Below are positions 47,296-63,747 of a stretch of DNA of 64,000 nt, in pieces. Within the stretch, counting starts at the first letter, position 1; each line of letters begins with the position of its first letter. The stretch spans positions 42,522 to 106,521 of the forward strand of contig LFSI01000084.1 in assembly GCA_001512545.1 (NCBI GenBank). The letters run 5' to 3'. The notes beneath the pieces are model-generated. The model was not told the DNA's origin and searched no databases. It saw only the letters and a list, made by a program, of their open reading frames with translations. This DNA comes from Clostridia bacterium DTU065 (GTDB lineage: Bacteria > Bacillota > DTU065). A program made the translations under genes and the position numbers.

Positions 47296-47307
47296 CTTAC
47301 AAACAAA

Positions 47308-47357: not shown

Positions 47358-47365
47358 AGTATATT

Positions 47366-48074: not shown

Positions 48075-50102
48075 TCACTGCTGAAACTTCCCAGGAAATA
48101 ATTTTGCAAGTGCGGCTCTGATCTCGGCCTCTGAGTTAATCCTCTCGCTGCAGGTTCCCCCCTTGCAAAGATAGAGGGCAAGCTCGCCTGCAGGTTTCCC
48201 CGCTTCAATGCCAAACTCAGGACAGGTGCCATCTGCAAACCAGAACAGAATGCCTGCAAGATAGTTCTGTTGGATTTCGGATCTGATCTGGGCCAAAAAC
48301 CCTGCGTCCTTCTCTCCTCCTGTTAGCACCACTTCCCAGCTTTCGCCCAGGTACCAGCTCGTAACAAGAACCAGAAGCGGTGCACCTTCAGGGTCGCTTT
48401 TGAGCACTCCTGCAAGGCCGCGCAGGGTCTGCTCCAACCTTCTCCGCAGTTCGAGGTCGCCGGTCACCTGAAAGAGCCTAAACAGCACTAAGGACATCAC
48501 CGAGTTGCCCTGGGGAATAGCTCCGTCGAACACCTCTTTTGGCCGTGTGGGAAGGATTGTATCTGCGGCGATCTTGTAGTAACCTCCTGCTTCTTCGTCG
48601 TAAAAGAGCCGGTTGGCTCTATTCACCAGGTTCAGCGCAATCTCCAACGCCTCTTTCCTTTCCCTACCCTCTTTCATGACACCGTACTCAAAAAAGCCCC
48701 AAGCAAGATAAGCATAGTCGTCGAGGTGACCTTTGGATATAACCTTGCCCCCTATCAACGCTCCCGGAAGTTCTTCCGAAGCGGCAATCCCTCGAAGGTA
48801 GCGATACAGAGCATCTGCAGCGTTCTGGATCCTTTCATCAAGAAAAGCAGCCTTGGCCAATCCTGCAAGGAGTAAACCGTTGGCAAACACGAGAATCTTT
48901 TTGTCGGTGAAAGGAGCGGTTCTGGTTTTCCCGCGGTACCTTTTCAGCTTACTTTGGATCTGTTCGAGCTCTTCCCGGTCCTTCCCTGATACAAGGTCCC
49001 AAAAAGCTTTTGAGCTTTTTGGGAAAAGATGGATTTTTCCCTCGAAGTTTCCATCTGCAGAGATTTCGTAGTACTTGGCCAGAAGACGAAGCTCGGCTGG
49101 AGTGAGAACCTCTTCTAGTTCTCCGACGGTGTAAAGATAGAAAGCTCCTTCCTTAGTCCCTGCGTCTTGAGCTGTAAAATATCCTCCATCTTCTCCTTTG
49201 AGATTGGCCTCTAAGTACTCAAAAACTTGAATGGCCTTGTGTTTAAAGTATCGGTCCTTGGTAAAGCGGTAGAACTCTCCCAGAGTATAGAGTAAAAAGG
49301 CGTTGTCGTAGAGCATCTTTTCGAAGTGAGGAACTTTGAACTGGGCATCAGTAGAGTATCTGAACATACCCCCTCCCACTTGATCGAAAGTGCCCTTGCC
49401 AAGAAGGCTCTTTAGGGTGTGCATGGCGATGTGCAGCGTTTTGTGATCGCTGCTGTCTGCGGCAGCATCCAGAAGCAAAAGAAGATTCTGCAGTTGAGGA
49501 AACTTTGGTGCAGGCAAAAACCCTCCGTGCTCAGGATCGTACTCTTCCTTCAGGTTTTCCACAGCCTTCAACGCAGCCTCTACCACGAACTCTCCCAAAG
49601 CACCTCCAGCCTCCGGTAAGTTTTCAATGCTCCGCTGTGCAGCTTCATCAATAATACTCCGGTCGTTCTCCCAGAACTCGACGATTTTTTGGAGCACATC
49701 GATCAGGCCAATCCGGCGCAATGTAGCCTTTTTCGGGAAGTAAGTCCCCGCATAAAACGGCAGCAGGTCCGGAGTGAGAAACACCGTCAGCGGCCATCCT
49801 CCCATACCAGTAGTTCTTACGCAGTAGTCCATGTACACAGCATCTACGTCTGGGTGCTGCTCTCGATCTACTTTAACAGCTACGAAATGCTCGTTGAGGA
49901 TCTCTGCCACTTCCTCATCTTGGAAGGACTCGTCGTTCATAACGTGGCACCAGTGGCACGTGGAGTAGCCGATGGAAAGAAATATTGGACGGTCCAGCGC
50001 TTTAGCCCGTGCAAAGGCCTCCTCGCCCCACGGATACCAGTCTATGGGGTTTTCTCCGTGGAGCTGCAGGTACGGTGAAGGTTCGCGTTTTAGCCGATTC
50101 AT
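48075..50102 (-). CDS. Thioredoxin-domain protein of the DUF255/YyaL family (N-terminal Trx fold plus six-hairpin glycosidase-like domain)
   Basis: [55 protein letters not shown] is the classic DUF255 start, including CHWC. 675 aa. Confidence 0.8.
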
Positions 50103-50423
50103 AGCTATCCCCCATCTGTTTTGACATCTCTTATGGTGTAATTATAAGATACCCAACTGCACAGTTTCCATGGCTCTGTTTTGGAGAAAAGGGGCGAAGT
50201 ACATACACACTGCAAGCGATCCCCACCGCTCTCTTAGAATGCCTGCAATCTCAAACTCCGAGTCTCCGCATGTCCGGATAACACAGACTAAAAAAGAGCA
50301 CGTTTGCAACACTAAGCACCACTGGTGATTTGTAAGGGTCATTACTACTCCATATCTCGAGGCTGGAATTTACCTTCCAACTAACTAAACCCTTCGGAAA
50401 GTTAATTCCGAACAAACTTTCCC

Positions 50424-50452
50424 TTGTATTGCCTATGATTTCCTGGCATAAT
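50424..50452 (+). promoter_or_regulatory. Sigma-A-type promoter (TTGTAT-n17-CATAAT) driving the leader, attenuator and 97-aa gene
   Basis: Hexamers at 50424-50429 and 50447-50452 are separated by 17 bp. Confidence 0.4.
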
Positions 50453-50509
50453 GATTGTAACACCAACAATATCGATCTTCCCGCTAAAAAAATGAGAGGA
50501 GGTGCGCCA

Positions 50510-50602
50510 ATGCTGAGGGAATCGGTTTCACTAAACTTTTTCGGCTATCGTTGTGACTACATGCCAAATAAGGTCTTGGCGTTGGCTCGCATCTTTACGT
50601 AG
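50510..50602 (+). CDS. Putative 30-aa leader peptide (MLRESVSLNFFGYRCDYMPNKVLALARIFT)
   Basis: Strong SD GAGAGGAGGTG at 50494-50504, 5 nt before the ATG. The ORF ends inside the 5' arm of the antiterminator. Confidence 0.35.
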   Translation: MLRESVSLNFFGYRCDYMPNKVLALARIFT

Positions 50603-50663
50603 AGCATCTTTTTGCATGCACTGAATTGAGCCAACGCTCTGGAAAGGGGACGTTGGTTTTTTT
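50578..50663 (+). promoter_or_regulatory. Attenuator: mutually exclusive antiterminator (50578-50588 pairs with 50628-50638) and terminator (50631-50663) hairpins
   Basis: GGCGTTGGCTC can pair with GAGCCAACGCt. The 3' arm of that pairing is the 5' arm of the CCAACGCTC-TGGAAAGG-GGACGTTGG-T7 terminator. The downstream SD (AAAGGGGA) lies inside the terminator, and the T-run abuts the ATG at 50664. Confidence 0.45.
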
Positions 50664-50957
50664 ATGTACACCAATGCAGAAGAGATACTCCCTCGCGATC
50701 TGATCGAGCAGATTCAGCAGTACATTCAGGGACAAGAAATCTACATTCCCAAATGCGACGAAAAGAAGCTGGGCTGGGGTGAAAGAAACGGTGCCAAGGC
50801 GCTGATTCGGGAACGCAACCGAACCATCTGCAGGAAATATGAATGCGGAGCTTCCATCGACGAGCTGATGGCTGAGTTCCATCTGAGCTACGACAGCATC
50901 CGCAAGATCGTTAGGGGAAGCAGGAAAAAACAACTCAGAAGCAAGAAAGGCATCTAA
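50664..50957 (+). CDS. Small putative transcriptional regulator (Mor / CD3324-like family, tentative)
   Basis: 97 aa. ILPRDLIEQIQQYIQGQEIYIPK...RNRTICRKYECGASIDELMAEFHLSYDSIRKIV resembles the small Mor-like activator pattern as I recall it. Confidence 0.45.
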   Translation: MYTNAEEILPRDLIEQIQQYIQGQEIYIPKCDEKKLGWGERNGAKALIRERNRTICRKYECGASIDELMAEFHLSYDSIRKIVRGSRKKQLRSKKGI

Positions 50958-51124
50958 CTTCGATGCCTTTTTTTATATAATCAAATCGGGAACCGGCCAA
51001 ATCATCCCAATAAGGGAGGTGGTTGAATTGATCAACCAGAGGTGGCTGAGAGTCTAACTCTCGGTGACAAACCGGCAGACCTGGCATGGAGGTCTGCCGG
51101 CTTTTTTTGCCCCTTTTAAATATG

Positions 51125-52471
51125 TCATTGGGAGATCTCCGAACCTGCTTCGAGATTTTTAACCTGAAGTTTGATGTCGTCAACTTCCTTTTTGCCAAGA
51201 GGATACAACAGGAAAACAAGGAACGAACAGGCCAACGCAATCACCGGAACTACAACCAACGCGATTTTCAAACCGGTTATAGCAGATGGCACCTGCTGCA
51301 GGCTGTCTGCCACATACCCCGATCGGTCGAGAATGTAGCCAAGGAGAGGTCCTTGCAGGGAGATGCCAAGGCGGATGATCAGGGCATTCATGCCGTAGTA
51401 CATACCTTCTCTTCTCTTTTTGGTCTTGAGATAATCCAGATCAATCACATCGGCAATGAGGACGTCGATAAGGATCATCAAGCCGGCAAGCCCAATGCCG
51501 TTAGTTGCAGCAATTAGCAGTCCGTGAACAAAGCTTTTGGCAAAAAAGTAGGGAACGAGGCTCAAGGCAAAGATCACGATGCAGACGAGAACGGTCCACT
51601 TTGCACCTTTCTTGGTGGAGATCCTGCTCCAGCCAAAGACAAAAAACAGGGAACTGATGAAAACCGTTCCGAGGATTAACGTCTGCTGGAGACCTTCGGA
51701 TCCGAGTACGTATTTAACATAAAATGGCAGTACCGCTTGCATAAAGACAAAGGTGAACTGCAGGAAAAACGAAGCAAGAACGTAGAGCACGAACGCTTTG
51801 TTCTTGAAAGTCTCCTGTAAAGACTCCCTCAGCGGCAGAGCAGGTGCAGGCTCTGCGTCTTGAGTCTGCAAAGACTCGATGCCTAAAACGCTGAGCCAGA
51901 TAAAAATCCCCGCAACAACTGCAAAGATGATGCCGGTGAGAGACCAGCCCATAAGCGCTGCAAGAAGAGGAGGCGCAGCATACCCCACGATGTTACCAAC
52001 GATCCCAAAGACCTGACGCTTTGCGGACACGCTGTTACGTTCGCTACTTGTTCTAAACGCCTCGGGATACAAAGCGGTGTAGTTCAAAAATACGAGCGTA
52101 TAGAGACCGTCGAACAGGAACAGCGCAAGAATGAAGTAGATCGAAAGAATCAGAGTGCTTCCGCCAAAAGAACTAGTCCCCGGTAGCCACAAGAGGGCAA
52201 ATGCTACTATAAAAGGCAGAATCCCATACTTTACGAAAGGAACTCTAGTTTGATGCTTGCTCTTGTAGATGTCCGAAACCTGCCCTAGAAGCGGATCATT
52301 TATGGCATTGTAGATTCCGTAAAACAGCATCACCTGTCCAACAAAGATCGGAGACAACTTCAGGTAGTCGATGTAGAAAAAGTTAATAAAACCGGAAAAC
52401 GTCGCCATCACCAGTGCACTTGCAAGCTGTCCGGCACTGTAAAGCCATTCAGCACGACTTTTAACAGCCAT
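51125..52471 (-). CDS. MFS transporter, glycoside-pentoside-hexuronide (GPH):cation symporter family
   Basis: 448 aa with 12 TM helices. The N-terminal FFYIDYLKLSPIFVGQVMLFYGIYNAINDPLLGQVSD block is GPH-like. Confidence 0.8.
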   Translation of the reverse strand: MAVKSRAEWLYSAGQLASALVMATFSGFINFFYIDYLKLSPIFVGQVMLFYGIYNAINDPLLGQVSDIYKSKHQTRVPFVKYGILPFIVAFALLWLPGTSSFGGSTLILSIYFILALFLFDGLYTLVFLNYTALYPEAFRTSSERNSVSAKRQVFGIVGNIVGYAAPPLLAALMGWSLTGIIFAVVAGIFIWLSVLGIESLQTQDAEPAPALPLRESLQETFKNKAFVLYVLASFFLQFTFVFMQAVLPFYVKYVLGSEGLQQTLILGTVFISSLFFVFGWSRISTKKGAKWTVLVCIVIFALSLVPYFFAKSFVHGLLIAATNGIGLAGLMILIDVLIADVIDLDYLKTKKRREGMYYGMNALIIRLGISLQGPLLGYILDRSGYVADSLQQVPSAITGLKIALVVVPVIALACSFLVFLLYPLGKKEVDDIKLQVKNLEAGSEISQ

Positions 52472-52579
52472 CTCTACATCCTCCGTTTTTGCTGTTATTA
52501 TTCTTCACTGTGGAAGAATTCACCTTGTATTTTGTATTAAACCAGAGGAGATGAGCAAAATAGTGGTGAGGTGAAGCGC

Positions 52580-52735
52580 ATGGACAAAAAGGATCCGAGA
52601 AACCTGCAGAACAAACGGAACCAAAACGCGGTTCAAAACCGAAATCAAAACGACAGAAACAACAAGCGCCAGGACCGCGCTAAAGACGATCTGCAAAACA
52701 AAAAAGACGAAGACCAGGACGAAAACAGGTGGTAA
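52580..52735 (+). CDS. Putative 51-aa hydrophilic protein rich in Asn/Gln/Lys/Asp (minor-SASP-like composition)
   Basis: MDKKDPRNLQNKRNQNAVQNRNQNDRNNKRQDRAKDDLQNKKDEDQDENRW. The SD GGTGAGGTGA sits 4 nt upstream, and a clean terminator follows at 52741-52775. It is too short for the ORF track. Confidence 0.35.
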   Translation: MDKKDPRNLQNKRNQNAVQNRNQNDRNNKRQDRAKDDLQNKKDEDQDENRW

Positions 52736-52740
52736 AAACA

Positions 52741-52775
52741 ACGGAGGATTACTATCCTCCGTTTTCTTTGTCTTC
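52741..52775 (+). terminator. Terminator after the 51-aa ORF
   Basis: ACGGAGGAT-TACT-ATCCTCCGT hairpin followed by TTTTCTTTGTC. Confidence 0.55.
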
Positions 52776-53926
52776 TATTTTGTAAAGCTGACTATAGAGA
52801 CGATAATTGCAACCAGCGAGAGACCAAACCCGGCCCACCAGAAGTTACGTCCTTTCTCCAGAGCAAGAAGCCTTGCATCACTGCTCTCGGTGACGCTGGC
52901 AAGCTGAGCTTCCAGCTTGTCTAGCCTGTTCTCGATAGTTCTCTCTCTGACAAAACCAGTGCTGATATTGGTGAGAAGCTCGTCTCTGAGCTGTATCTCT
53001 AAAGCGGCTATCTGTTGCTTTGCCTGTTCAAGTTGCTTTTCAAGTCCGGCAATTCTCACAACCTCGTCTTCTAAGGTCTGAAGTTCATTCCTCAAGCTTG
53101 CAAGCTCCTGCTGCAGCTCCTGGATCTTTTGCGACGACTCAGTGGAGATGGACTCGGATTTTTTCACAAGCTCGTCGATGTTTTGACCGCTCATGGCCAG
53201 CGAGGTTTTCAAAGCGTTGACCTCTTCTTCAAGCCGCTTTGTTGCTTCGTCCAGATCAAGCCTGAGTGCTACCAGCTCGCTGGTCATCTCGGACTTAAGA
53301 TTTTCCTGCTCTTTGAGGGTCTCGTTAGACGACATCTGAATAGCCTTAGTGATAGCCAGTTCTACAGCTTCGCTGGATGCCTTGTCATCGCTCAAAGTGG
53401 TCAGCATAGTAGTTACATCTGCAATCTGCCGCTCTAGCGCTAACTTAATGTCGTTCATCGACTTGAAAACGGCTTCGATTTGCTTGGCGATCTCCGGCTT
53501 AAAGCTGTTGTAGTCGATCTGGAGCCTGGTGATCTCGTCTTTAGTAACGATGATGGTCTTTTCCAATTCGCTGATCTTGTTTTTGGCTTCGTTGAACTCC
53601 AAGACAAACTGGCTCAGTTCTTTGTGGAACTCCTGGTACAGCTTGGTGAGAGTGGTGATGTCTTCAGGCGATGTAGCAACTTTCCCCGTCTGAACCTCCC
53701 GCAGGATGCGAGCGACAATGCTAGCTAACGTGTAGCGGTCTACAGGTTCGCCGCCCCTGAAAGTGTTGTCGGGATACGCTGACAGGTAGCCTTTATCTAA
53801 CAGTTCTATTACACTCTGATAAGCCCAGTGAGTTGACGGGACATCTGTCACTGTAGCAGCTAAAGCAGAAATCGCTAACGTAAAAGCGACCAAAAGGGTG
53901 AGAATTCTTTTGGGAAGCAGCTTCAT
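52775..53926 (-). CDS. SLH-domain protein with a long coiled coil and C-terminal membrane anchor (Omp-alpha-like architecture)
   Basis: Signal peptide, then the SLH module THWAYQSVIELLDKGYLSAYPDNTFRGGEPVDRYTLASIVARIL. A heptad-rich rod of about 270 aa follows. The hydrophobic C-terminus is FWWAGFGLSLVAIIVSIVSF. Confidence 0.65.
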   Translation of the reverse strand: MKLLPKRILTLLVAFTLAISALAATVTDVPSTHWAYQSVIELLDKGYLSAYPDNTFRGGEPVDRYTLASIVARILREVQTGKVATSPEDITTLTKLYQEFHKELSQFVLEFNEAKNKISELEKTIIVTKDEITRLQIDYNSFKPEIAKQIEAVFKSMNDIKLALERQIADVTTMLTTLSDDKASSEAVELAITKAIQMSSNETLKEQENLKSEMTSELVALRLDLDEATKRLEEEVNALKTSLAMSGQNIDELVKKSESISTESSQKIQELQQELASLRNELQTLEDEVVRIAGLEKQLEQAKQQIAALEIQLRDELLTNISTGFVRERTIENRLDKLEAQLASVTESSDARLLALEKGRNFWWAGFGLSLVAIIVSIVSFTK

Positions 53927-53953
53927 GCTCTTAACCTCCTTTGGAACATAGTC

Positions 53954-55969
53954 TTATTGATACTCAATCTCGAGGTTCTCCGTCGTATAGGTTCCCGGCG
54001 GATTAACTGAGGACTGATCAATGGAAATCGTAGTATTGACATAGTCGAGAATGCTGAACTTAAGCTGCGCAAGTGAAGTCACGATGGAACCTCTATCCAC
54101 TACTTGCCCTTCGATCTCGATCACACCTAAACGGTTGGCTTCGTAGATATCCGTTACCGAGAAAGCTCCTTTGGGCATCTCGGGATGAACCATGTCCGTA
54201 CCCAAAGCCCAGCCTTCAAACCTCAGTACCTTAGGATCAAACCTGATCCGCATGGTAAACGTTCTTAAGGCCGGCATGTTTGTTGACAGAACGTCAACAA
54301 AGAGCACGTTGACATCACCTATTCTTTTCACAGCATTGGCAGCAAGTTTCAGCTTCGGCCTTACCTGAGGCACCTGTACCGCTAGAGTTATATCTGCCGG
54401 TTTTTCGGCATTTGTTGATTCCGCTGCCAAAACCACGTTTATTGTTCCAAAAGGATAGGTCAGCATGTTGTTAGGTGTGGTGTCAACTCGCCAAACCACT
54501 TCCTTCGCTTCTCCAGGAGCAAGGGAGCCGACAAAGTAGTTGGCATAGAAGTCGGGATTTGCTCCAGCAACTACTTTAAAGGCCGACGTGGACACCCTGA
54601 GATTGACGTTATGAGCAGTTGAGTCGCCGTCGTTTCTTACGGTGCCTGTTACTTCAAAGATAGAAGGATAAAGCTTTTCTTCGTAGATTCCCAGGTTTCT
54701 CGGCCCGCTCAAACTGAGGTTGAGCCTTGCTGGCTTGCTGACATCAACATCCCTAGAAACTGACAGAGGATCTACGTCAACTGCTTCCACATTCATGGTT
54801 ATCTTCAAACTGCCAAAAGCTTCACCTGTAGGTACGACCTTCCAGACCACCTGGCGGGACTCTCCAGGAGCCATCCTGCCCAGGAACCTTTCAGGTTCAT
54901 TGATGTGCTTCAAGCCTTTAGGCAGCTGCAGCTCGGCTATTACTTCGTGTGCAAGACCATCACCGGTGTTCTGGATGTAGCCTATTACGTCAAACGGCAC
55001 CGGGTTAACCGCCATTTCCACTTTGTTGACCGTGCTAAGGCCGATGGAGAGGTAACCCTGAGCAACGGTGATGCCGCCTAGACCGTAATGGGTGATGTAG
55101 TGCCTCGACTCGCCTGGCGCTAGCGGAGTTGGATCCCAGTACAGTGCCATGGCACTGTCGAGGTCGAACTCACCGATGCGGGTAAAGTCGCGACCCGGCT
55201 GGAAGTTAAAATCCCACACACCGTCTGCCACACTACCCCAGTTGGTAAAGTATACTCTACTGGGCTTTGTGACCTCAGGTCCAGCAAGGTTAGCTTGAGC
55301 CATAACTGCAGGCCTGATCAGGTCGTCGAAAGCCTGTATAAACGAAGGGATATCGTCACCTGAGAACATGGTATCGCCAACAACTGCCATATCCCGCACT
55401 CTAAAGGGGGCACCGTCGTTGTTGCCAAGCATGGTGTCTAGAACCACGCGGAGACCCACATTCTTTGGCGACGTACCTTGGTTCGTCACCACGTAACTGA
55501 TGGCCGCAGTGTCGGGCTGACCTGTTGTGGTTGATGTAGTGATTGAAAGAATCTGTTCAACCAAAATGTCGCCGTACCTGTAGGCCGTATATATTCCATC
55601 ATCTCTGTGCACTGGGGCCGTGACCAGCGTGCCGTATTCACCGCTGAATCCCGCCCTCTTAGTGGTTTTTCCTCCGAAAACGTAGTCAAGACCACCGATA
55701 CGGATGGTGCTGTATGATGTAACCGGTTTGCCCAAACCGTAGATCAGGAAGTTATCGTCATCATCGATTCTTTCCGGATCGCCACCGGTTGTCAGAACTG
55801 CAAATCGGCCCGTGCCATCGTCGCTGGCGTTGACCGCAATTTCAATGAAATCATTACTTACTTTGAGTACCCCGTCACCTTGACCGAAGGCAAGAGGTTT
55901 TTCATCTGCAAAAGCCTGTGGTAGAACAATGAGGATCAGACATAGCAAGATTGCGATTGATTTTTCCAC
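53954..55969 (-). CDS. Large secreted protein with repeated CARDB/DUF11-like beta-sandwich modules
   Basis: Signal peptide MEKSIAILLCLILIVLPQAFA. Repeated blocks of the form PGESRQVVWKVVP / PGEAKEVVWRVDT are present. 671 aa. Confidence 0.45.
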   Translation of the reverse strand: MEKSIAILLCLILIVLPQAFADEKPLAFGQGDGVLKVSNDFIEIAVNASDDGTGRFAVLTTGGDPERIDDDDNFLIYGLGKPVTSYSTIRIGGLDYVFGGKTTKRAGFSGEYGTLVTAPVHRDDGIYTAYRYGDILVEQILSITTSTTTGQPDTAAISYVVTNQGTSPKNVGLRVVLDTMLGNNDGAPFRVRDMAVVGDTMFSGDDIPSFIQAFDDLIRPAVMAQANLAGPEVTKPSRVYFTNWGSVADGVWDFNFQPGRDFTRIGEFDLDSAMALYWDPTPLAPGESRHYITHYGLGGITVAQGYLSIGLSTVNKVEMAVNPVPFDVIGYIQNTGDGLAHEVIAELQLPKGLKHINEPERFLGRMAPGESRQVVWKVVPTGEAFGSLKITMNVEAVDVDPLSVSRDVDVSKPARLNLSLSGPRNLGIYEEKLYPSIFEVTGTVRNDGDSTAHNVNLRVSTSAFKVVAGANPDFYANYFVGSLAPGEAKEVVWRVDTTPNNMLTYPFGTINVVLAAESTNAEKPADITLAVQVPQVRPKLKLAANAVKRIGDVNVLFVDVLSTNMPALRTFTMRIRFDPKVLRFEGWALGTDMVHPEMPKGAFSVTDIYEANRLGVIEIEGQVVDRGSIVTSLAQLKFSILDYVNTTISIDQSSVNPPGTYTTENLEIEYQ

Positions 55970-55983
55970 ATCTCTTACCTCCT

Positions 55984-56922
55984 CTACTCTAGCGGTTGAA
56001 CTTCACCAAACTTGTGGGTACCTACGCCTTTTTCAAACACAACAATTACCGGCACCTTGTAGCCGTTGGGGAATAGAGCTCTAGCTTCTGCGTCAAAGCG
56101 CCCTTTCCACGACCGCTCTGCAAGACTAACCAGTTCTCTGTTGAAGCGTTCTTCACCCATACCTCGAACCAGAACCACTGTGAGCTTACCCTCTCTGTCT
56201 ACCTCAAAGATCATCTCTAGTTCGCCTGTGTATTCAAGGCTTTCGATGTTCTTTGTGGTCCAGCCTCCGGTACCGCCGGCTCTAGTGATGTAGTCGTCGC
56301 CTTTCGGTGGAACGTACTTATCGCTGTTGCCGTCCGGAGAACCGGTCTTCTCGATGGCGTCGCCCTGGATGGTTTCCTCAACCTCTGGAGCAGCTTCACC
56401 CTTAGCTTCCTGCGTCATATCGCTCAAATCCACTTCAAAGGTACTGGTTTGGCTTGTAACAACTTCGATCGCAGGAGGCACTTCTTGCTTTGGCAGCTGC
56501 ACCGTTTCTGGATCCGGCTTAGGAGTAGGAGGTTCGACTTTCTGCGGTGCAGGTGTAGTTGTCTGCTGGGTCGTTTGAGGCGGCTTTGTAGCTGTGGTTT
56601 GAGTGGTAGGAGGATTCGTCTGGGCTTTTTCAACTGGCTCCACCACCACCTTGTTGGTTGGTTGCGTCTCCTTATTCTCCACATTTCCCGTAGCCTTTTT
56701 CTCAGGCTGAGATACTTCAGTTGTCTTTTCTCCGCCTTTGTTTGCAGGTTTATCGGGACCCTCCAGGCGTACTCGAACGATCATCTGTCCGGTGCTGTTT
56801 CCTACACCTGCAAACATTGCCTCGAACGCTTCGGCGTTAATTACTAAAACCAGAAAAATGTGTAACGCCAAGGAAATAACGAAAAAGACAGAGAGGGCCT
56901 TATTGTCATTATGTGCTTGCAT
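55984..56922 (-). CDS. TonB/TolA-like energy-transducer protein (N-terminal TM, Pro/Thr/Gln-rich spacer, C-terminal TonB-like domain)
   Basis: The TM segment is LSVFFVISLALHIFLVLVI. The spacer (PTTQTTATKPPQTTQQTTTPAPQKVEPPTPKPDP) is about 120 residues. The C-terminal region is about 100 aa and ends ...KVPVIVVFEKG. It follows exbB-exbD. Confidence 0.6.
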   Translation of the reverse strand: MQAHNDNKALSVFFVISLALHIFLVLVINAEAFEAMFAGVGNSTGQMIVRVRLEGPDKPANKGGEKTTEVSQPEKKATGNVENKETQPTNKVVVEPVEKAQTNPPTTQTTATKPPQTTQQTTTPAPQKVEPPTPKPDPETVQLPKQEVPPAIEVVTSQTSTFEVDLSDMTQEAKGEAAPEVEETIQGDAIEKTGSPDGNSDKYVPPKGDDYITRAGGTGGWTTKNIESLEYTGELEMIFEVDREGKLTVVLVRGMGEERFNRELVSLAERSWKGRFDAEARALFPNGYKVPVIVVFEKGVGTHKFGEVQPLE

Positions 56923-56940
56923 TTAAGCCCACTCCTTTTG

Positions 56941-57339
56941 TCATTGTTTTGTTTCGACAGCCAAGGAGATGTTGTAACCGCCTCCGGCCTGTACAATGTC
57001 CATTGCTTTGATTACGTACATGTAAGGTATATCTTCATGTGCCCTAATAATGATTACTTCTTGAGGATTGTCGGCAAGCCTGGTCTTAACGGAAGCCAGG
57101 ATCTGCTCTTCGCTTAGGCGGTTGTCACCTAGGTACATGTCGCCGTTTTGATCGACGCTGATAACCAGCGAGCTTTTCAGCGCACCTTCACCAGTAGAAG
57201 CTTTGGGGAGCTGAAGGTTGATGGCAGCTTCGTATACCCTGAAGCTGGTAAAAATGACGAAAAATAGAATCAGAGACAGCATGATATCGATCAGAGGAGT
57301 CAGATCGATCTTCGGCTTATTGGTTTCGTACTTAATCAA
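56941..57339 (-). CDS. exbD: Biopolymer transport protein ExbD/TolR
   Basis: 132 aa. The INLTPLIDVmLvLLiFF-type motif is present (IDLTPLIDIMLSLILFFVIF), and a periplasmic domain follows. Confidence 0.8.
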   Translation of the reverse strand: MIKYETNKPKIDLTPLIDIMLSLILFFVIFTSFRVYEAAINLQLPKASTGEGALKSSLVISVDQNGDMYLGDNRLSEEQILASVKTRLADNPQEVIIIRAHEDIPYMYVIKAMDIVQAGGGYNISLAVETKQ

Positions 57340-57980
57340 GCTATATCACTCGTTTCCTTTTCCGACGTTTCAACCTTCAGGTTGGCGAAGATATCGAGAA
57401 TCTCGGCCATAGCCCTGTTCATACTGGTCACGTTCTTAACTACTAAAGAGTCCAGATATGAGTATATCACCGAAACGGGAATAGCGATAATTAAACCGTA
57501 GGCTGTAGTCAGAAGAGCTTCGGCAATACCAGAGCTCATGGCAACAGGGTCGGAAACGCCCTGGAGCTGTCCTAAAACGTTAAAAACCTTGATCTCGCCG
57601 GTAACTGTACCTAAAAGGCCGAGCAGCGGCGAAATTGTTGCAATAATCTGCAGAGCTGGCAGTCTTTTTCTCATTCTATAGAGTTCTTGTTCTGCAACAA
57701 GATTCATATTGCGCTCAACTTCATTGAGGTCCCGTCCGTAGTTCTGAATGCCCGCAGCTAAAACAGCAGCAATCGGACCTCTTTCCTGCTTGGCAAACTT
57801 CAAAGCTTCGAGAAATCTGCCCTGGTTAAGATGGCGTTTTACTGCACCAATGAGTTTGTCCGCATCGTTTTGTGCGCGAAGTAGATTGTAGAGACGTTCT
57901 AGGGCAATGGCCAGTGCTACTACAGAACACGCCAATAGCACATACATTACCCATCCACCTTTAGCTAATAGTTCAAGCAT
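57336..57980 (-). CDS. exbB: MotA/TolQ/ExbB proton-channel family protein
   Basis: Three TM helices. The C-terminal part has the family block GLLGTVTGEIKVF...AEALLTTAYGLIIAIP. The start is probably the ATG at 57980. The tracked GTG at 58010 is embedded in a GGAGGTG motif. Confidence 0.8.
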   Translation of the reverse strand: MLELLAKGGWVMYVLLACSVVALAIALERLYNLLRAQNDADKLIGAVKRHLNQGRFLEALKFAKQERGPIAAVLAAGIQNYGRDLNEVERNMNLVAEQELYRMRKRLPALQIIATISPLLGLLGTVTGEIKVFNVLGQLQGVSDPVAMSSGIAEALLTTAYGLIIAIPVSVIYSYLDSLVVKNVTSMNRAMAEILDIFANLKVETSEKETSDIA

Positions 57981-58549
57981 AATCCGCCTGCCAAAAAGCA
58001 GGCTTGCCACCTCCTTGAGAGCTGTTTATCTTCGTCTTGCGATTCCGGTCTAGAGTACTGCTACAGCAGCTGTCAATTCTCATGACTGCTTTCGACAAAG
58101 CCGCAGTGTTTTCCTTGTACGCCAGCTAAAGGAACCGTTAGAATCTTTTCACATTCACGGCGTTAAAATTCCTCCACCAGTCAAGCTACCCCGAGAGGTC
58201 CTCTTGCAGCTACGAGGGAAAACTGCTGTCCATTACAAGTTCTGTTCGGCCGGGCCTTTTGCTTTAATGTTTACAAAGCTGCTACCGGCGATTCTTCCAG
58301 TCAGCGAACATAAGAAGAAAGGCCACAAAGATCCCAACCCGAAAGAGCCAGATCTTTTGCCTACCGAAAAAACCCTGATGCTTATTCAGACTCATTTAGA
58401 CCGTCGCAGTTACGCAAAAGAGGAAAAAAATCGGGTGTTTCTAGTGCCTGCAGGTGTTTCTCTCCGAGCCCGTTTTCTTTCGAACGCAAAAGAAGACTCC
58501 GGCGGCCTTCCGGCCCGACTGCGGAGCCTTCTTTGTATCCTGAGACTTC

Positions 58550-59242
58550 TTAGTTCAAGCTTACAAGGAGTACCACTGCACCCATAACTCCGATAGCAAT
58601 AAACAAGCTTCTGATGGTCTTGGATTGATCTTCGAGCTGCTGATTCAGTTCGGTAACCTCTTTACGCAGCGCATCCACTTCATCTCTGGTGCTGGTCACG
58701 TCGGCATACTTCTGGTTCAGGCTATCAATCTGCACCTGATAGACGTCCAGACGCCGAGAGAGACTGGTCTGTGTAGACTCGAGGCTCTGCAGGGCATCTT
58801 CTAACATTCCGTAGTCCAGCTGAAGATCGTAGTAGCGGTTGTTGATCTCTAAAAGATCATTCTCGAATTCCGCCTCAAGTTCCATAATCAAGCCCAAAAT
58901 TTCCTTGATCATCTGGTTGTCCGACTGGACTGCAGACGGTCTTTTCTCGAGTTCTGCAACTCTACCCTCTATGCCGCCAACCTTTTGCTCGTAATCGGCT
59001 TGAATGCCGGCAAGCACGTCCAAAAGCCTTGCCACAAACACCGCCATCTCATACCTGTCTATGGTCTGCTGCCCGCGAAACGATCCGTCTGGATAGCCTT
59101 CCATCAAGCCACTATCCAAAATCTTCATAATGCTTTCATATGCCCAGTGGGTTTTTTGCACGTCTGTTGGAGGTAACGCTGCAAAGGCTGAACTGGTCAT
59201 AACTATTGCGAAGAGAACAAAAACTAGTAGGTATTTTTTCAT
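58550..59242 (-). CDS. SLH-domain / coiled-coil / C-terminal-anchor protein, shorter paralogue of 52775-53926
   Basis: Signal peptide, then the SLH module THWAYESIMKILDSGLMEGYPDGSFRGQQTIDRYEMAVFVARLL. A coiled coil follows. The hydrophobic C-terminus is LFIAIGVMGAVVLLVSL. Confidence 0.65.
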   Translation of the reverse strand: MKKYLLVFVLFAIVMTSSAFAALPPTDVQKTHWAYESIMKILDSGLMEGYPDGSFRGQQTIDRYEMAVFVARLLDVLAGIQADYEQKVGGIEGRVAELEKRPSAVQSDNQMIKEILGLIMELEAEFENDLLEINNRYYDLQLDYGMLEDALQSLESTQTSLSRRLDVYQVQIDSLNQKYADVTSTRDEVDALRKEVTELNQQLEDQSKTIRSLFIAIGVMGAVVLLVSLN

Positions 59243-59246
59243 AGCC

Positions 59247-60920
59247 TCACTCCTCTCTAACGATTGCTAAACTGATCTCCGGTATTATCTGAATCTCGAA
59301 AAACCTCGGCCATGCCAGTTTGATATCCCAATCGACAGCATCACCGAGTCGGTAGTCTCCCACACTTCTGCCGGCAAAATGCTTTCTGTAAAAGTCGTTT
59401 AAGCGGGGTCTGAGCAAAAATCCCAGTTCCTCCTGGACAAACCCGAAGAGGTTTTCGGGGATGTTGATGGTGTCGATACCGTTGCTTCTGGTAAACCTCT
59501 CGATTTCTCCCTGCACTTGGACTTTGTAAAAGTAGTCTTTTGCCAGGCGGTGAAGGAGGTACTCAAAGTGGGCTTTAGTTGCATTTTCCAGCTCTTCTCC
59601 TTCCAGCTTGTCCCTAGCCAGAGAGGAGACCGCCTGTCCTATGGCCAGTCCCAGCGTGTTTCCGGCAGTATTCCAACCGGCAAACCCTGTAAGCTTGGCC
59701 ACTTCCACCTGATCGGTCATGGCTTCAAAAAACCCTGGGTGAGCGGAATTGGTGACGACCACATCGCAGATGACAACTCTCCTGCCCTGCTCCATCAGGT
59801 CTTTAACCTTTCCGGCAGAAAAGCTGTCGTTTCCTCCTGGAGTTACAACAAACAAATCAATAAGTCCGTTTTCAGCGATTCGGGCACCTACAGCCTCTAA
59901 GTGCCTTGCGATGTTTGCAGCAAAGTTGACGTCTTCAAAAGGGGCGACCCAGCGGGAACCCTCAATTCCTGAGTAAAACACCTTGAACGTGGGCTCCAAA
60001 CCGTAGTGGTGGGTCACTGCTCTGCTGACCAATATCACACCCACCTCGTCTGCTCCGGGAAAGATCATTACTTTATCCTCAAGCCCGAGCTCGTCTACCT
60101 TTGCCTTGAGCACTTCCCGTTCAGCGCGGTGCAGGCCTGTCAGCGAAGCATCGTCCTGGGCGAGAATGAGGTAGTCAATAACTCCCTCTTGAACAAGGTC
60201 GATGGCCAGGCTGTTAATCACGTGGTTTCTCGCTCTGGCTGCTAGGTAGTCGTTCCTGATGTCTTCGGGAATGAAGCTCTCCAACTGGTCCAGCTTAGCC
60301 TGTTTGTCCGTCTGACCGAGATTTTCCACCTCGTCCTTGAGAATCGCCCACTCATGTGTAGCACTGTAGTACTGGGACGAACGAGCGTCGCTGGTTGTGA
60401 TGGCAAGCCGCTGGATGGTATCAAAAGCGTAGATCGGTTTGTCTCCGATCTTCTCTTTGAGGGTTCTTAGAGACTCCAGGTTGGCCTTGGCTATCTCCAG
60501 AGGCACATCTCCTGTTCGCGATGCCACCAGGCCACCGTAGCAGAGCTGGGAAATGGAGACGATGTAGTAGTCTGCTTCACTTTCTAAAAGCCAAGCGGGA
60601 TACTTTTCTATATCTCCAGGTTTCCTGTAGTAGTCCAGCATTTCGGAATCCGGCATCACAAGATCCAAACCCGAAGCTTTTGCCACCATCTCCGGCGAGT
60701 AGGTGTTTGCCGGTCTGCTGTCAAGGGGCAGAAGCAAGATGGTAGTACTGTCTTCCACATCAATCACGACACCTTCACCAACTTCTACGTCTCCTTCTGT
60801 CGAGGCCACCTCCTGAATGCTCTCCGCTACCTCTGGTGCCTCTGGCGCTCCAGCAAAGTACATCCCGACTTGAGTTCCTAACGCCAGAAGCAGTACAACC
60901 AATAGTGTTTTCTTGAGCAT
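59247..60920 (-). CDS. Hypothetical secreted protein (557 aa)
   Basis: N-terminal signal/anchor MLKKTLLVVLLLALGTQVGMYFAG, then a large acidic domain. It lies 4 nt upstream of the SLH paralogue. I assign no family. Confidence 0.4.
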   Translation of the reverse strand: MLKKTLLVVLLLALGTQVGMYFAGAPEAPEVAESIQEVASTEGDVEVGEGVVIDVEDSTTILLLPLDSRPANTYSPEMVAKASGLDLVMPDSEMLDYYRKPGDIEKYPAWLLESEADYYIVSISQLCYGGLVASRTGDVPLEIAKANLESLRTLKEKIGDKPIYAFDTIQRLAITTSDARSSQYYSATHEWAILKDEVENLGQTDKQAKLDQLESFIPEDIRNDYLAARARNHVINSLAIDLVQEGVIDYLILAQDDASLTGLHRAEREVLKAKVDELGLEDKVMIFPGADEVGVILVSRAVTHHYGLEPTFKVFYSGIEGSRWVAPFEDVNFAANIARHLEAVGARIAENGLIDLFVVTPGGNDSFSAGKVKDLMEQGRRVVICDVVVTNSAHPGFFEAMTDQVEVAKLTGFAGWNTAGNTLGLAIGQAVSSLARDKLEGEELENATKAHFEYLLHRLAKDYFYKVQVQGEIERFTRSNGIDTINIPENLFGFVQEELGFLLRPRLNDFYRKHFAGRSVGDYRLGDAVDWDIKLAWPRFFEIQIIPEISLAIVREE

Positions 60921-61134
60921 GACCTTTCCTCCGATCGCAAAGGACAGGTAGCTGCGTCTTACAGTACCATCCTAATTTGTGTTCGTTCATCGAAAAACGT
61001 TACTTCAATTCCAATTTATTCCTCTGCCTTTTGCAAAAGGTGGCGCTTAAACCTCAGTCCGTTTAAACGCCAGGTAAATCCTAGATGTATTATGTTTCCT
61101 GTCCAAAACCATAAGTTCCAATCCCCTGAGGAGT

Positions 61135-61707
61135 CTAAGCGCTGGCCTGCCTCTTCATCTCTCGGAAGCGCGCTTTTGTCAGCGACATCAGCCAAATCTC
61201 CTGCCAATCGGGATCCTTTCTGCGCAAAAAACCCTTGATGGTAAAGCCAACTTTCCCGTAAGCACGGACTGCTCTCTGGTTTTTTCCGTAAACCCGTAGA
61301 TAAACTTCTTCCAGCCCTAAATGCTCAAAGGCTTCCTCCAAAACCATGTTAATCGCTCTGGTTCCGAGACCTTTGTTCCAGTACTGCTTTTCGGCTATAC
61401 AGACTTTCAGCTCTGCATGTCCGCTTCTCCAAGCTATATTGCAGAGCTCGATATCGCCGATAGGATGTGCATTGTATTCGATAACCAGAAAACGTCTGTC
61501 GCGATTATGGGTTTTGTTAAACAACCAGTCCCTGATTTTCTCTTCCTCATCGGGATACTCCCAACCGGTGAGATCTCCCAATTCTTCATCGTGGCTCCAG
61601 GCCAAAAACTTTTCTACATCGTCTTCTGTGGGGCGTCTCAGACGTATGCAATCTTTTGCCATCTTTACTGTTCCCTCCACAACAACAAAGGTCCGGTCAA
61701 CTGTCAT
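61135..61707 (-). CDS. GNAT-family N-acetyltransferase (RimJ/RimL-like)
   Basis: The acetyl-CoA site block QYWNKGLGTRAINMVLEEAF is present. 190 aa. Confidence 0.75.
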   Translation of the reverse strand: MTVDRTFVVVEGTVKMAKDCIRLRRPTEDDVEKFLAWSHDEELGDLTGWEYPDEEEKIRDWLFNKTHNRDRRFLVIEYNAHPIGDIELCNIAWRSGHAELKVCIAEKQYWNKGLGTRAINMVLEEAFEHLGLEEVYLRVYGKNQRAVRAYGKVGFTIKGFLRRKDPDWQEIWLMSLTKARFREMKRQASA

Positions 61708-61739
61708 GGAGGTTTTCTCTATAAGTCCGCCCCTTACCT

Positions 61740-62555
61740 TTAGGCAATTCCATCCATAGCCCGCAGTAGCTGTTTAAAATAGTGCTCGGGAAGATCAATG
61801 GTTCCCATGAGCAAACTGTCTTTGCCCTTGGGCCCGTGGCAATCGGAGCCTCCAGTGATAATCAACCCTCTAGATAGAGCAAACTTCTCATACTCTAGGG
61901 TCTGCTCCGGCAGGTGAGCTGAATGGAAAACCTCAATTCCATCGACGGGAACGTCCTTCAGGAGGCTGTCTGTTAGTTCCATCTTCACTAGGGCAGGATG
62001 GGCCAGCACCGCTACACCTCCCGCCTGATGAATCAGCTCCACAGCGTCTTTGGGCAGGAGTTTATTTCTGGCAACATACCCCGGTTTTTCCGGATTGAGA
62101 TACCGGCTGAAGGCATCGGAAACCGAAACGGCGTAACCCTTAGCCACCATAGCTCTTGCCACGTGGGCCCTTCCGGGAAGGCCGGTAATGGGCAGATCTT
62201 CAAACTTGAGAGGCAGACCAAATCGTGTAAGCTTGTCCACAGTTAGATGAATCCTCTCAATACGCTCGTTTTCGAGTTCCTGCAGAACATCCAGCAGGGT
62301 TTGATTCTTCACATCAACTCCGTAACCGAGAATGTGGACCTCCCGATCCAAGTACTCGCAGCTGAGTTCCACACCGGGAATCACCATAAGCTCTGTGCCT
62401 AAAGCCGCCTTGGCCTCCAGCGCCTCGGGTACCCCTGCTACCGTATCGTGATCGGTAACACTGATAGCTGAAAAACCTGCTGCTGCAGTTTTCACGAGCT
62501 CTGTAGGTGTGAATGTACCGTCGGAAAATGTGGTATGAAGATGCAGATCGATCAA
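61740..62555 (-). CDS. PHP-domain phosphoesterase
   Basis: MIDLHLHTTFSDGTFTP...ISVTDHDTV gives the His-rich PHP motifs. 271 aa. Confidence 0.8.
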   Translation of the reverse strand: MIDLHLHTTFSDGTFTPTELVKTAAAGFSAISVTDHDTVAGVPEALEAKAALGTELMVIPGVELSCEYLDREVHILGYGVDVKNQTLLDVLQELENERIERIHLTVDKLTRFGLPLKFEDLPITGLPGRAHVARAMVAKGYAVSVSDAFSRYLNPEKPGYVARNKLLPKDAVELIHQAGGVAVLAHPALVKMELTDSLLKDVPVDGIEVFHSAHLPEQTLEYEKFALSRGLIITGGSDCHGPKGKDSLLMGTIDLPEHYFKQLLRAMDGIA

Positions 62556-62556
62556 C

Positions 62557-63267
62557 TTAATCGTCTCCTAAACTGTTTCGTAGTAGATTTAGAGCTTTTT
62601 TCTCAATTCTGCAGATTTGAGCTTGGGAAAGCTGCAGTTCCGCAGCTAATTCCACCTGAGTCTTCTCCGCAAAAAACCGCTGCATAACGATGTAGCGGCT
62701 GCGTTCGTCGAGGTTTTGCAGCAGCTCATCGATTAGCATTTTGGTCTCCTTGTGCTCTTCGACTTTGACTAGCACGTCTTGAAGCAACACCTTGTTATCT
62801 TCATCAATCGGTTCATCAAGCGACTTCGGCGTCCTGGCAACCTCTAGGGCATAGATCAACTCCTGTGGATCTACGCCTAAAACTCCTGCAACTCGAACGA
62901 GGCTCGGTTCCCGGCCTTCTTGTTGGTAGATGGTCTCGCTGATCTCTTTATACCGCAGGTACAGTTCCCGGGCTTTTCTGCCCAGACTCACCTGTTTCTG
63001 CTTGCGCAGGCACTCTTTCATCTCTCCCATAATGTAGGGTACTGCGTATGTGGAAAACGCAGTGCCAAAACCAGGATCGAAGCTGTCAAGTGCTTTAATG
63101 AGCCCAACAAACCCGGCTTGTACCAGATCCTCGTATTCGCCTGCAGAAAACCTCTTGGCCACATGTACCACTAGTGCCGTGTTGTTTTCCAGGAATCTAT
63201 CTCTCGCTTCTTTGCTACCTGCTTTCGCTTGGCGGAGTAGTTCGATATCATTGGGCATCGTTTGCAT
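62557..63267 (-). CDS. sigF: Sporulation sigma factor SigF (a SigB-type group-3 sigma is not excluded)
   Basis: Region 2 is LVQAGFVGLIKALDSFD...FSTYAVPYIMGEMK, and region 4 is ELAAELQLSQAQICRIEKKAL. It lies immediately after spoIIAA-spoIIAB-like genes. Confidence 0.75.
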   Translation of the reverse strand: MQTMPNDIELLRQAKAGSKEARDRFLENNTALVVHVAKRFSAGEYEDLVQAGFVGLIKALDSFDPGFGTAFSTYAVPYIMGEMKECLRKQKQVSLGRKARELYLRYKEISETIYQQEGREPSLVRVAGVLGVDPQELIYALEVARTPKSLDEPIDEDNKVLLQDVLVKVEEHKETKMLIDELLQNLDERSRYIVMQRFFAEKTQVELAAELQLSQAQICRIEKKALNLLRNSLGDD

Positions 63268-63691
63268 GCGGTCTCTTTTTCATAGTTAGTTTTGTGCCTT
63301 TTCCCGGATAAGATTCCACAGAGATCTCATCCATACAGGCTTCCATGAAGTTAAAACCCCAGCCAAGATTCTCATCAGGTTTTGTTGTAAACTCGGTTGT
63401 CTTAGCCAATTCGACATTTTCAATGCCAACGCCTTGGTCTTCAATAACTATTGTCAAAAGGTCGCCTTCGATATACACGCTGATACTAACCGTTCCCACC
63501 GAATCGGGGTATGCATGCTGAACACAGTTCGAGACTGCCTCGGACACGGCTTTGCGGATTTCGTTGTATTCGGCCTCTGTAAACTGCTCGATCTGGACGG
63601 CAAATGCCGCTACCGTGGATCGGGCAAAAGCGATATTCACAGGCAAACTCGGGAACTGAAAATGAACTTCATTCTTCTGTGTCATAGACAT
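63248..63691 (-). CDS. spoIIAB: Anti-sigma F factor SpoIIAB (GHKL Ser kinase)
   Basis: EIRKAVSEAVSNCVQHAY (N-box), DQGVGI (G1) and FTTKPDENLGWGFNFMEACMDEISV (G2) align with the Bacillus SpoIIAB pattern. Confidence 0.75.
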   Translation of the reverse strand: MSMTQKNEVHFQFPSLPVNIAFARSTVAAFAVQIEQFTEAEYNEIRKAVSEAVSNCVQHAYPDSVGTVSISVYIEGDLLTIVIEDQGVGIENVELAKTTEFTTKPDENLGWGFNFMEACMDEISVESYPGKGTKLTMKKRPHANDAQ

Positions 63692-63747
63692 TTGGCACGC
63701 TTAGACAGTGCCGTCCTCCCCTCGCAATAATCAAAAGGCAGGGCAGG

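Follow-up and report, generated by a model that had tools for sequence, protein, structure and literature searches.

Tol-Pal, Lpp and OmpA are, to our knowledge, missing from the diderm Firmicutes and from other Terrabacteria, in which OmpM is the only outer-membrane tether that has been described. Tol-Pal is confined to the Gracilicutes, and among the diderm Firmicutes the combination of tonB with a TonB-dependent transporter has been catalogued only in the Negativicutes (PMC12204202). In OmpM, each of three chains contributes one S-layer homology (SLH) domain to a trimeric wall-binding head (PMC10628300). Omp-alpha of the Thermotogae is defined by an SLH domain and a coiled coil, is enriched in the toga fraction, and spans the distance from the wall to the toga (PMC10160955). 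The window analyzed here, i.e., the 64,000-nucleotide stretch at positions 42,522 to 106,521 of contig LFSI01000084.1 from Clostridia bacterium DTU065 (GCA_001512545.1), contains a locus of seven open reading frames (ORFs), all on the minus strand, at 52775–60920, where an earlier note on this DNA had placed them. What is new in this locus is the combination of a Ton/Tol-type motor with a fixed new set of partners and with Omp-alpha-like rods in Firmicutes. Five of the seven genes form an operon common to at least three deep Firmicutes groups, with a GC content from 33% to 73%. On balance, we lean towards reading this operon, together with a clade-specific pair of genes, as a proton-driven trans-envelope module of diderm-type Firmicutes with a Tol-Pal-like organisation. 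No description of the operon, of its 670-amino acid (aa) protein family or of DUF4127 was found in the accessible literature, which did not extend to closed-access work such as Taib et al. 2020.

The operon starts with an exbB/tolQ-like stator gene (57336–57980, minus strand; 214 aa from the ATG at 57980, a more likely start than the GTG at 58010 of the mechanically called ORF). It is followed, on the same strand, by an exbD/tolR-like stator gene (56941–57339; 132 aa), a divergent tonB (55984–56922; 312 aa), the gene for a 671-aa secreted all-beta protein (53954–55969), and SLH383 (52775–53926), the last gene of the conserved operon. The exbB and exbD genes overlap by 4 nt, and the subsequent gaps are of 18, 14 and 27 nt. 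A 10-bp GC-rich hairpin with a T-run, which begins 12 nt past the SLH383 stop, is the probable operon terminator and is bidirectional (52740–52763). Given the tight packing and the terminator after SLH383, exbB-exbD-tonB-671aa-SLH383 is one operon.

The exbB product matches PF01618 (E value 7.6e-30) and has three hydrophobic segments. Its best NCBIfam match is TolQ (94.4 bits; cut-off 221) as compared with 59 bits for ExbB, both scores being below the cut-off, and its best PDB match is E. coli TolQ (E value 3.4e-12), with which the glutamate of the third transmembrane segment, in the motif GIAEAL, is aligned. The exbD product matches PF02472 (E value 9.5e-30) and has one transmembrane segment, with Asp18 in the motif PLIDIM. 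Its best NCBIfam match is TolR, below the cut-off (65.8 bits; cut-off 127.3), and its best PDB match is E. coli TolR (E value 9.8e-11), the transmembrane Asp again being aligned. In the PDB scores TolQ and TolR are ahead of ExbB and ExbD by a small margin only. The motor looks functional, its key proton-channel residues being intact.

For the product of the third gene, searches of Pfam, NCBIfam and PDB sequences gave no match, and its close relatives likewise have no Pfam match. The protein has a single N-terminal transmembrane segment with S17 and H21 invariant in five sequences, a spacing that we take to be that of the Ser-His pair in the SHLS motif of TonB and TolA anchors. A linker rich in Pro, Thr and Gln follows (residues ~90–150), and then a conserved C-terminal domain (aa ~205–312) with the order beta-beta-alpha-alpha-beta-beta. 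The canonical YP motif is absent from this domain and is replaced in the window’s clade by an invariant GG[ST]GG[FW]TTKNIESLEYTG stretch. The family is narrow: 5.8 billion proteins contain only six clusters of it, and an exhaustive search of 1.84 billion representatives gave five; the three weakest matches of the exhaustive search carry Pfam TonB_C (E value 2e-13 to 1.7e-10). Comparison by hhalign of the window’s TonB group with the TonB_C-bearing relatives gave an end-to-end alignment, including the C-terminal domain, at 98.2% probability. In a Foldseek search against the PDB, the match of highest probability, a weak one, was the C-terminal domain of E. coli TonB (1xx3; probability 0.91, target-normalised TM-score 0.56, E value 0.068). 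Judged by its transmembrane motif and by the profile-profile comparison, the 312-aa protein is a divergent TonB. GltJ and FilE, which were considered as identities for the Pro-rich linker, were rejected, the weak matches being compositional.

The 671-aa protein is composed of a signal peptide, a galactose-mutarotase-like supersandwich (aa ~33–300), two Ig-like domains of the CARDB/NEW3 kind and, at the C-terminus, a cohesin-like domain. The Pfam family NPCBM_assoc/NEW3 is matched with 26.6 bits (gathering score 24.4), while CARDB falls just below its threshold (22.1 bits; gathering score 22.7). The supersandwich is of a carbohydrate-binding type. In the family, which has 460 matches of a uniform length of 660–730 aa, most invariant residues fall in the N-terminal domain, and many of these are polar or aromatic, a pattern that fits a carbohydrate-binding or catalytic site. 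The mature N-terminus (aa ~22–34) contains a conserved peptide, IP-x-x-F-x-Q-G-D-G-V, that is found only in the clade with the divergent TonB C-terminal domain; in other lineages the mature N-terminus of the homologues is variable and lacks this peptide. A co-evolving, TonB-box-like contact between the clade-specific peptide and the divergent TonB domain is thus a possible lead. The protein is named ‘cellulosome anchor protein’ at NCBI. A role as a cellulosome component was rejected, since neither the hosts nor the gene context fit.

The domain reading given in the earlier note is borne out for all genes by the Pfam matches to SLH, ExbB and ExbD and by the signal-like segments, heptads and hydrophobic tails. 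Its TonB-like assignment is supported by the invariant S17-x3-H21 and by the hhalign comparison with TonB_C-bearing relatives. The description of the 671-aa protein as a CARDB-repeat protein was roughly right as far as the Ig-like CARDB/NEW3 domains are concerned; CARDB itself is below its gathering score, and the supersandwich and cohesin-like domains had been missed.

The two rods are SLH383 and SLH230, the latter encoded at 58550–59242 (minus strand). SLH383 has a signal-like segment ending in ALA/A, a Pfam SLH domain (PF00395) at residues 27–64 (E value 4.1e-07), heptad-like sequence at residues ~79–361 (a coiled coil of ~280 aa), and a hydrophobic tail at residues 361–383, ending in KGRNFWWAGFGLSLVAIIVSIVSFTK. 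SLH230 has a signal-like segment ending in AFA/A, an SLH domain at residues 26–67 (E value 1.8e-11), a coiled coil at aa ~70–206, and a hydrophobic tail at aa 207–230, ending in KTIRSLFIAIGVMGAVVLLVSLN. Both SLH matches are above the gathering score, and both coil regions have a low content of Pro and Gly. The two proteins had been called paralogues. They do share one architecture, but they are alike only over the signal peptide and the SLH domain (47% identity over 73 aa; E value 1e-20), and the coils do not align. The best PDB relative of SLH230 by sequence is OmpM of Veillonella parvula (8bys; E value 5.7e-14), and that of SLH383 is SlpA of D. radiodurans (7zgx; E value 5.3e-13), which is matched over residues 23–136, i.e., the SLH domain and the start of the coil. 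Sap, an S-layer protein of a monoderm, reaches no better than ~1e-3 against the rods. By these matches, the SLH and stalk portions of the rods are far closer to the outer-membrane tethers OmpM and SlpA than to the SLH domains of monoderm S-layers.

With one SLH domain per chain, a trimer of rods would be needed to complete a wall-binding head, and the single SLH domain followed by a coil suggests, by analogy, that the rods trimerise as OmpM does. A homologue search with SLH383 returned only 18 matches, none of which is named Omp-alpha. Because fast evolution of the coil left so few sequence matches, orthology of the rods was set by gene position. One homologue with the SLH-coil-tail architecture is labelled ‘Betaproteobacteria bacterium’, a suspected case of mis-binning or misclassification.

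In a species scan that used one genome per species, five related species known from metagenome-assembled genomes (MAGs) are syntenic with the window (L008–L012; one is ‘Firmicutes bacterium UBA4881’), with TonB identities of 46–67%. The entire order sigF, PHP, GNAT, DUF4127, SLH230, exbB, exbD, tonB, 670-aa, SLH383, MFS, DsbH is found in four of the five, the contig of the fifth being too short for the entire arrangement. The lineage is uncultured and very common in anaerobic-digester assemblies, and SLH230 is indexed in 604 blocks of the sequence collection. The five-gene core was found in six further contexts, namely Natroniella, Halanaerocella, a Limnochordales MAG and three MAG or metagenome contigs. 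In the complete genome of Natroniella sp. ANB-PHB2 (L021) the order is spmA-spmB-PHP-exbB-exbD-tonB(TonB_C)-665aa-223aa-SleB-like hydrolase, and the arrangement in Halanaerocella petrolearia (L025) is the same. The Limnochordales MAG (L022; 73% GC) has exbD-tonB(TonB_C)-719aa-417aa, and the three MAG or metagenome contigs (L023, L024, L026) have dacF-spoIIAA-spoIIAB-sigF-(PHP)-GNAT-exbB-exbD-tonB-670aa-rod. A low-GC contig (L013) carries exbB-exbD-tonB(TonB_C) and the start of a 670-aa homologue, and ends before the rod gene. In each complete case, the 670-aa homologue is followed by a gene whose product, of 223 to 472 aa, combines a signal peptide with an SLH-type motif (HWAY...G(Y/F)...F.G...RY), a long coil and a hydrophobic segment at the end. 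Positional orthologues of SLH383 with the same architecture are present in L008–L012 and L021–L026; overall, the rod proteins span 214–472 aa because of wide variation in coil length, and all orthologues end in a hydrophobic segment. Rods of the Omp-alpha type had been thought unexpected in such lineages, an expectation contradicted by the genomes of Halanaerobiales and of the Limnochordia type, in which such rods are a conserved part of the operon.

Among the best 120 of the 460 homologues of the 671-aa protein, those from named cultured organisms belong to Fuchsiella, Halanaerocella, Halanaerobacter, Halonatronum, Sporohalobacter, Natroniella (two) and Limnochorda pilosa, the last being counted by its 671-aa homologue and not by its gene neighbourhood; Candidatus Frackibacter is also among these 120. 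The named cultured hosts in this set are only Halanaerobiales and Limnochorda, i.e., diderm Firmicutes, and the MAGs that carry a name are labelled Limnochordia, Limnochordales, Halanaerobacter and, in one case, ‘Natronincola sp.’. The last of these (L023) shares the sigF-PHP-GNAT-operon layout with other Firmicutes contigs and is suspected to be mislabelled. The earlier note had likened the organism to the diderm Negativicutes or Halanaerobiales. The likeness to Halanaerobiales stands by virtue of the shared operon, while that to Negativicutes does not, no Negativicutes match being present among the listed homologues. Judged by orthology, the link that the operon makes between this organism and the diderm sporulating Firmicutes holds.

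The second rod belongs to a different unit. DUF4127 (59247–60920, minus strand) encodes a 557-aa protein that matches PF13552 over its full length (E value 3.5e-125) and that has a hydrophobic N-terminal signal or anchor at residues 4–25; no PDB relative was found by sequence. The DUF4127 gene and orthologues of SLH230 are syntenic in L009–L012, while DUF4127 is absent from the corresponding position in L021–L026, and the pair is an addition specific to the window’s clade. A terminator-like hairpin, detected by consensus scan only, follows SLH230 (58491–58511, minus strand). In addition, SLH230 is separated from exbB in four of the five relatives (L009–L012; e.g., 7187–8638, minus strand, in L011) by a gene on the opposite strand for an Orn/Lys/Arg-type decarboxylase of 483–539 aa. 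Both features argue for DUF4127 and SLH230 as an upstream transcription unit separate from the five-gene operon, so that the picture of two rods flanking a single unit does not stand. The gap between SLH230 and exbB in the window is 540 bp and contains no decarboxylase gene or remnant. A 127-aa ORF (58204–58587, plus strand) fills most of this gap, at the place where the relatives have the decarboxylase, and is probably not a gene. In the Limnochordales MAG, a gene with a spermine-synthase domain follows the rod gene (L022, 5029–6663). The SLH domains of OmpM in the Negativicutes bind polyamine-modified peptidoglycan. By analogy, a polyamine link between the rods and their decarboxylase or spermine-synthase neighbours may be worth checking.

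In the module that we favour, an ExbB/ExbD-type stator in the cytoplasmic membrane would turn proton flow into force on the TonB-like protein, whose Pro-rich linker would reach across the wall space and whose C-terminal domain would engage a partner by strand pairing. The most likely partner would be the co-encoded 671-aa protein, glycan-binding and cohesin-bearing, since no TonB-dependent barrel is linked to the operon in any of the loci read. The rods would form parallel trimers, with a wall-binding head of three SLH domains at one end and a three-helix hydrophobic anchor at the other, and would tie wall polymer to a membrane over ~20 nm (SLH230) or, if the coil is continuous, ~40 nm (SLH383). 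By analogy with the known systems, the role of the whole may be the maintenance or tethering of a two-membrane envelope. A bolder proposal, which we hold to be rather unlikely, is that Terrabacteria have their counterpart of Tol-Pal in the five-gene operon, which would be an ancestral proton-driven trans-envelope machine of the diderm Firmicutes and would control the place and the time at which the outer membrane is joined to the wall. The TolQR-like stator and the TonB-type arm would then act on the glycan-binding, cohesin-bearing periplasmic protein and on the trimeric SLH rod, and the wall tie would be controlled, e.g., at division or at the membrane transition from spore to cell. The lineages that bear the operon are without Tol-Pal and, as reported, without TonB-dependent transporters.

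Several results speak against the favoured module, and they concern the rods, the TonB-like protein and the outer membrane itself. The coiled-coil call is a crude heptad score above that of shuffled sequences, together with sub-threshold matches to SMC/Rad50-type families. The AlphaFold2 model of the TonB-like protein is of low confidence overall (mean predicted local distance difference test score 44.6; 59–77 in the C-terminal domain). The tails of the rods are strongly hydrophobic (Kyte-Doolittle ~2.0–2.6 over 18–19 residues), and tails this hydrophobic would normally be kept in the cytoplasmic membrane by Sec. They could be anchored there in a cell that is nonetheless diderm, the signal peptide taking the N-terminus out and the C-terminal helix stopping transfer. 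In that case the rods, instead of tethering the outer membrane, would link the cytoplasmic membrane with the wall or serve as a spacer beside the motor. In favour of this explanation, unlikely as we judge it, the tails lie at the extreme C-terminus, the same operon encodes ExbB, ExbD and TonB, which are proteins of the cytoplasmic membrane, and we know of no pathway that delivers a helical anchor to the outer membrane. It is opposed by the distribution of charges. In the rod tails, basic residues always precede the hydrophobic segment, and 0–3 residues, at most one of them basic, come after it, so that the K/R residues are on the wrong side for an anchor with its N-terminus out and its C-terminus in. 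As judged from the residues, the pattern is the opposite of that of a stop-transfer anchor with a positive cytoplasmic tail. Moreover, the nearest relatives of the SLH and stalk portions are OmpM and SlpA, which have their far end in the outer membrane, and Omp-alpha, with the same architecture, is toga-enriched and runs from wall to toga (PMC10160955). Together, these sequence features favour an outer-membrane placement of the tails over one in the cytoplasmic membrane only modestly.

A further set of results bears on whether this organism has an outer membrane at all. The negative results for outer-membrane genes cover the 64-kb window and flanks of up to 10 kb. No outer-membrane gene (BamA, Lpt, Lpx), OmpM or TonB-dependent transporter was found in the 64-kb window, the flanks likewise hold no outer-membrane gene, none of the window’s secreted ORFs has an aromatic beta-signal at its end, and no TonB-dependent transporter or beta-barrel gene is present in the window’s locus or in any related locus that was read. 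In the tree of the 670-aa family, the window’s clade forms a long separate branch outside the groups named Halanaerobiales and Limnochordia. The TonB C-terminal domain of this clade has lost recognisable TonB_C sequence, and this loss and the long branch both fit a changed role. Complete Ton systems are occasionally found in monoderm Clostridia (PMC12204202), and many deep-branching Bacillota stain Gram-negative yet are without an outer membrane (PMC11448272).

On a rival reading, the window’s clade has lost its outer membrane and is monoderm, or a thin-walled ‘atypical Gram-negative’ with a protein layer, in which the operon would be a repurposed relic. The rods would then join wall to membrane or be S-layer-associated, and in the wall the secreted cohesin protein would be what the TonB motor acts on. 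In favour of such a loss are the clade’s long branch in the tree of the 670-aa family, a TonB C-terminal domain that has diverged and is without the YP motif, the gain of DUF4127 and SLH230, the lack of any outer-membrane gene in the window, and the frequency of outer-membrane loss in deep Bacillota (PMC11448272). We nevertheless think it quite unlikely. The five genes are under clear constraint across species at 46–67% identity, with the motor residues intact, the orthologues from named cultured organisms (best 120 of 460 matches) are all from diderm lineages, and the SLH similarity favours OmpM and SlpA. Indirectly, from an operon shared with Halanaerobiales and Limnochordia, we infer that this organism probably has an outer membrane.

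Two other explanations are improbable. According to the first, the locus would serve ordinary Ton nutrient import, the motor energising barrel transporters encoded elsewhere and the 671-aa and SLH genes being unrelated neighbours. The Pfam ExbB and ExbD domains, the TonB_C of the relatives, and the feoAB genes with an iron-dependent repressor at ~9–12 kb from the locus would agree with this; against it, the five genes stay side by side in one order, with tight packing, in lineages whose GC content ranges from 33% to 73%, no TonB-dependent transporter was present in any locus read, and tonB with such a transporter is reported only from Negativicutes among the diderm Firmicutes (PMC12204202).

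According to the second, the module would act mainly in sporulation or germination, e.g., in remodelling the spore outer membrane or the cortex region, the spore-former having obtained its outer membrane from that of the mother cell. The operon is always found amid sporulation genes. It follows dacF-spoIIAA-spoIIAB-sigF and PHP and/or GNAT in L023, L024 and L026, precedes spoVAC/D/E in L023, and lies between spmA/spmB-PHP and a SleB-type hydrolase in the Halanaerobiales (L021 and L025), the PHP-family gene being a near-constant upstream neighbour. In the window, spoIIAA, spoIIAB and sigF are located just upstream of the locus (61740–63987), in agreement with the sporulating Firmicute that had been proposed from the sequence. 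A conserved block, ACAAGGAA-N-TTTGTCGAAA, is located ~110 nt upstream of exbB (58090–58118, minus strand) and is invariant in the window and in L008–L012, while the flanking intergenic DNA is unalignable. This candidate promoter element resembles what we take to be a sigma-H-type promoter, and this resemblance too would suit a sporulation role. Where a genome abounds in sporulation genes, however, neighbourhood alone is a weak argument; the operon has no established sporulation sigma promoter, and the downstream neighbours vary by lineage.

Between this block and the coding sequence, the leader of exbB (57985–58021, minus strand) is conserved in a cross-species alignment of six species, i.e., the window and L008–L012. 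It includes a strong Shine-Dalgarno sequence, AAGGAGG, ~30 nt before the ATG and, between the two, a 6-bp hairpin, GCCTGC/GCAGGC, whose stem is invariant and whose loop varies in length. The loop lengths differ by non-multiples of three, and the stretch is therefore non-coding. The hairpin could be a translational control element; its fold energies were not significant as compared with those of shuffled sequences. An Rfam scan of 50000–64000 returned only one sub-threshold match, to an S15 leader, and a scan for sigma-70 promoters gave results at chance level.

On the low-GC contig L013, two secreted proteins without a Pfam match are encoded between PHP and exbB (7293–8756). One, of 252 aa, ends in ...LDFKLSFGF, resembling an outer-membrane beta-barrel C-terminal signal, and the other, of 226 aa, looks repeat-rich or beta-helix-like. 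In the window, beyond the MFS transporter that follows the operon, there is a small gene (50664–50957, plus strand) for a Mor/CD3324-family activator-like protein (NCBIfam NF040785; E value 1.7e-31). Farther on, a low-GC island at 44001–48000 (0.43–0.45, as compared with ~0.50) holds a RloB-domain gene (46432–47052) and an AAA_21 ATPase split into two ORFs (45130–45975 and 45923–46414). The ATPase is intact (370 aa) in one metagenome copy and differently fragmented in others, and the two genes look like a decaying, strain-variable defence-type pair.

For the energising of outer-membrane processes and the coordination of constriction in diderm Firmicutes, the operon is a concrete and testable candidate for an energy-coupled envelope system. 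Among the diderm Firmicutes, a survey lists Ton systems only in Negativicutes (PMC12204202), and the operon adds a motor-TonB unit in Halanaerobiales, in Limnochordia-type genomes and in a very abundant digester lineage. Hard-wired to this unit are two envelope proteins that are not barrels; one is a second, Omp-alpha-like SLH tether. The operon may also provide an extra genomic marker for tracing the retention or loss of the outer membrane in Firmicutes, and cultured hosts for testing it include Natroniella, Halanaerocella and Limnochorda.

Compared with the known systems, the locus shares with Ton a MotA_ExbB and ExbD stator pair with conserved transmembrane Asp and Glu, and a third protein with an S-x3-H N-terminal transmembrane segment and a proline-rich linker, which in most lineages of the operon ends in TonB_C. 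It differs from Ton in that no barrel transporter is linked, and in that tonB is fixed in an operon with the motor and two non-barrel envelope proteins; in the window’s clade, moreover, the C-terminal domain has neither a match to Pfam TonB_C (PF03544) nor the YP motif. With Tol-Pal (tolQ-tolR-tolA-tolB-pal-cpoB) it shares the order of stator pair, transducer, secreted all-beta protein and wall-binding, membrane-anchored protein. The transducer is likewise encoded with the motor, and the stator compares slightly better with TolQ/TolR than with ExbB/ExbD. The transducer, however, is TonB-like, with a Pro-rich linker and TonB_C, and not a TolA with a long helical domain, and the secreted protein is built of supersandwich, Ig-like and cohesin domains, not of a TolB beta-propeller. 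The wall binder combines an SLH domain, a coil and a helical tail and is not an OmpA-like lipoprotein such as Pal, having neither a lipobox (ALA/A, no Cys at +1) nor an OmpA domain. The likeness to Tol-Pal is thus organisational only and does not extend to homology of the last two genes with TolB and Pal.

Like the cellulosome scaffoldins SdbA and OlpB of Clostridium thermocellum, the locus brings together a cohesin-fold domain and an SLH wall anchor. Unlike in those, cohesin and SLH are on separate proteins, there is no dockerin or cellulase context, and a supersandwich and a TonB operon are involved; furthermore, the named hosts are non-cellulosomal halophiles and Limnochordia. The rods resemble Omp-alpha of the Thermotogae by architecture, with a signal peptide, one N-terminal SLH domain, a long coil of variable length and a C-terminal hydrophobic segment. 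In contrast to Omp-alpha, and to the split OmpM-like systems of Bipolaricaulota and Fraserbacteria, they have no adjacent gene for an Omp-beta-type barrel in the window or in the related loci. They are encoded instead in an operon with a TonB motor, and in lineages of Firmicutes for which OmpM, too, is reported. Their closest solved relatives belong to the OmpM/SlpA superfamily, with which they have in common the SLH domain and the first part of the coiled-coil stalk; where OmpM and SlpA end in a C-terminal beta-barrel, the rods have more coiled coil and a single hydrophobic helix.

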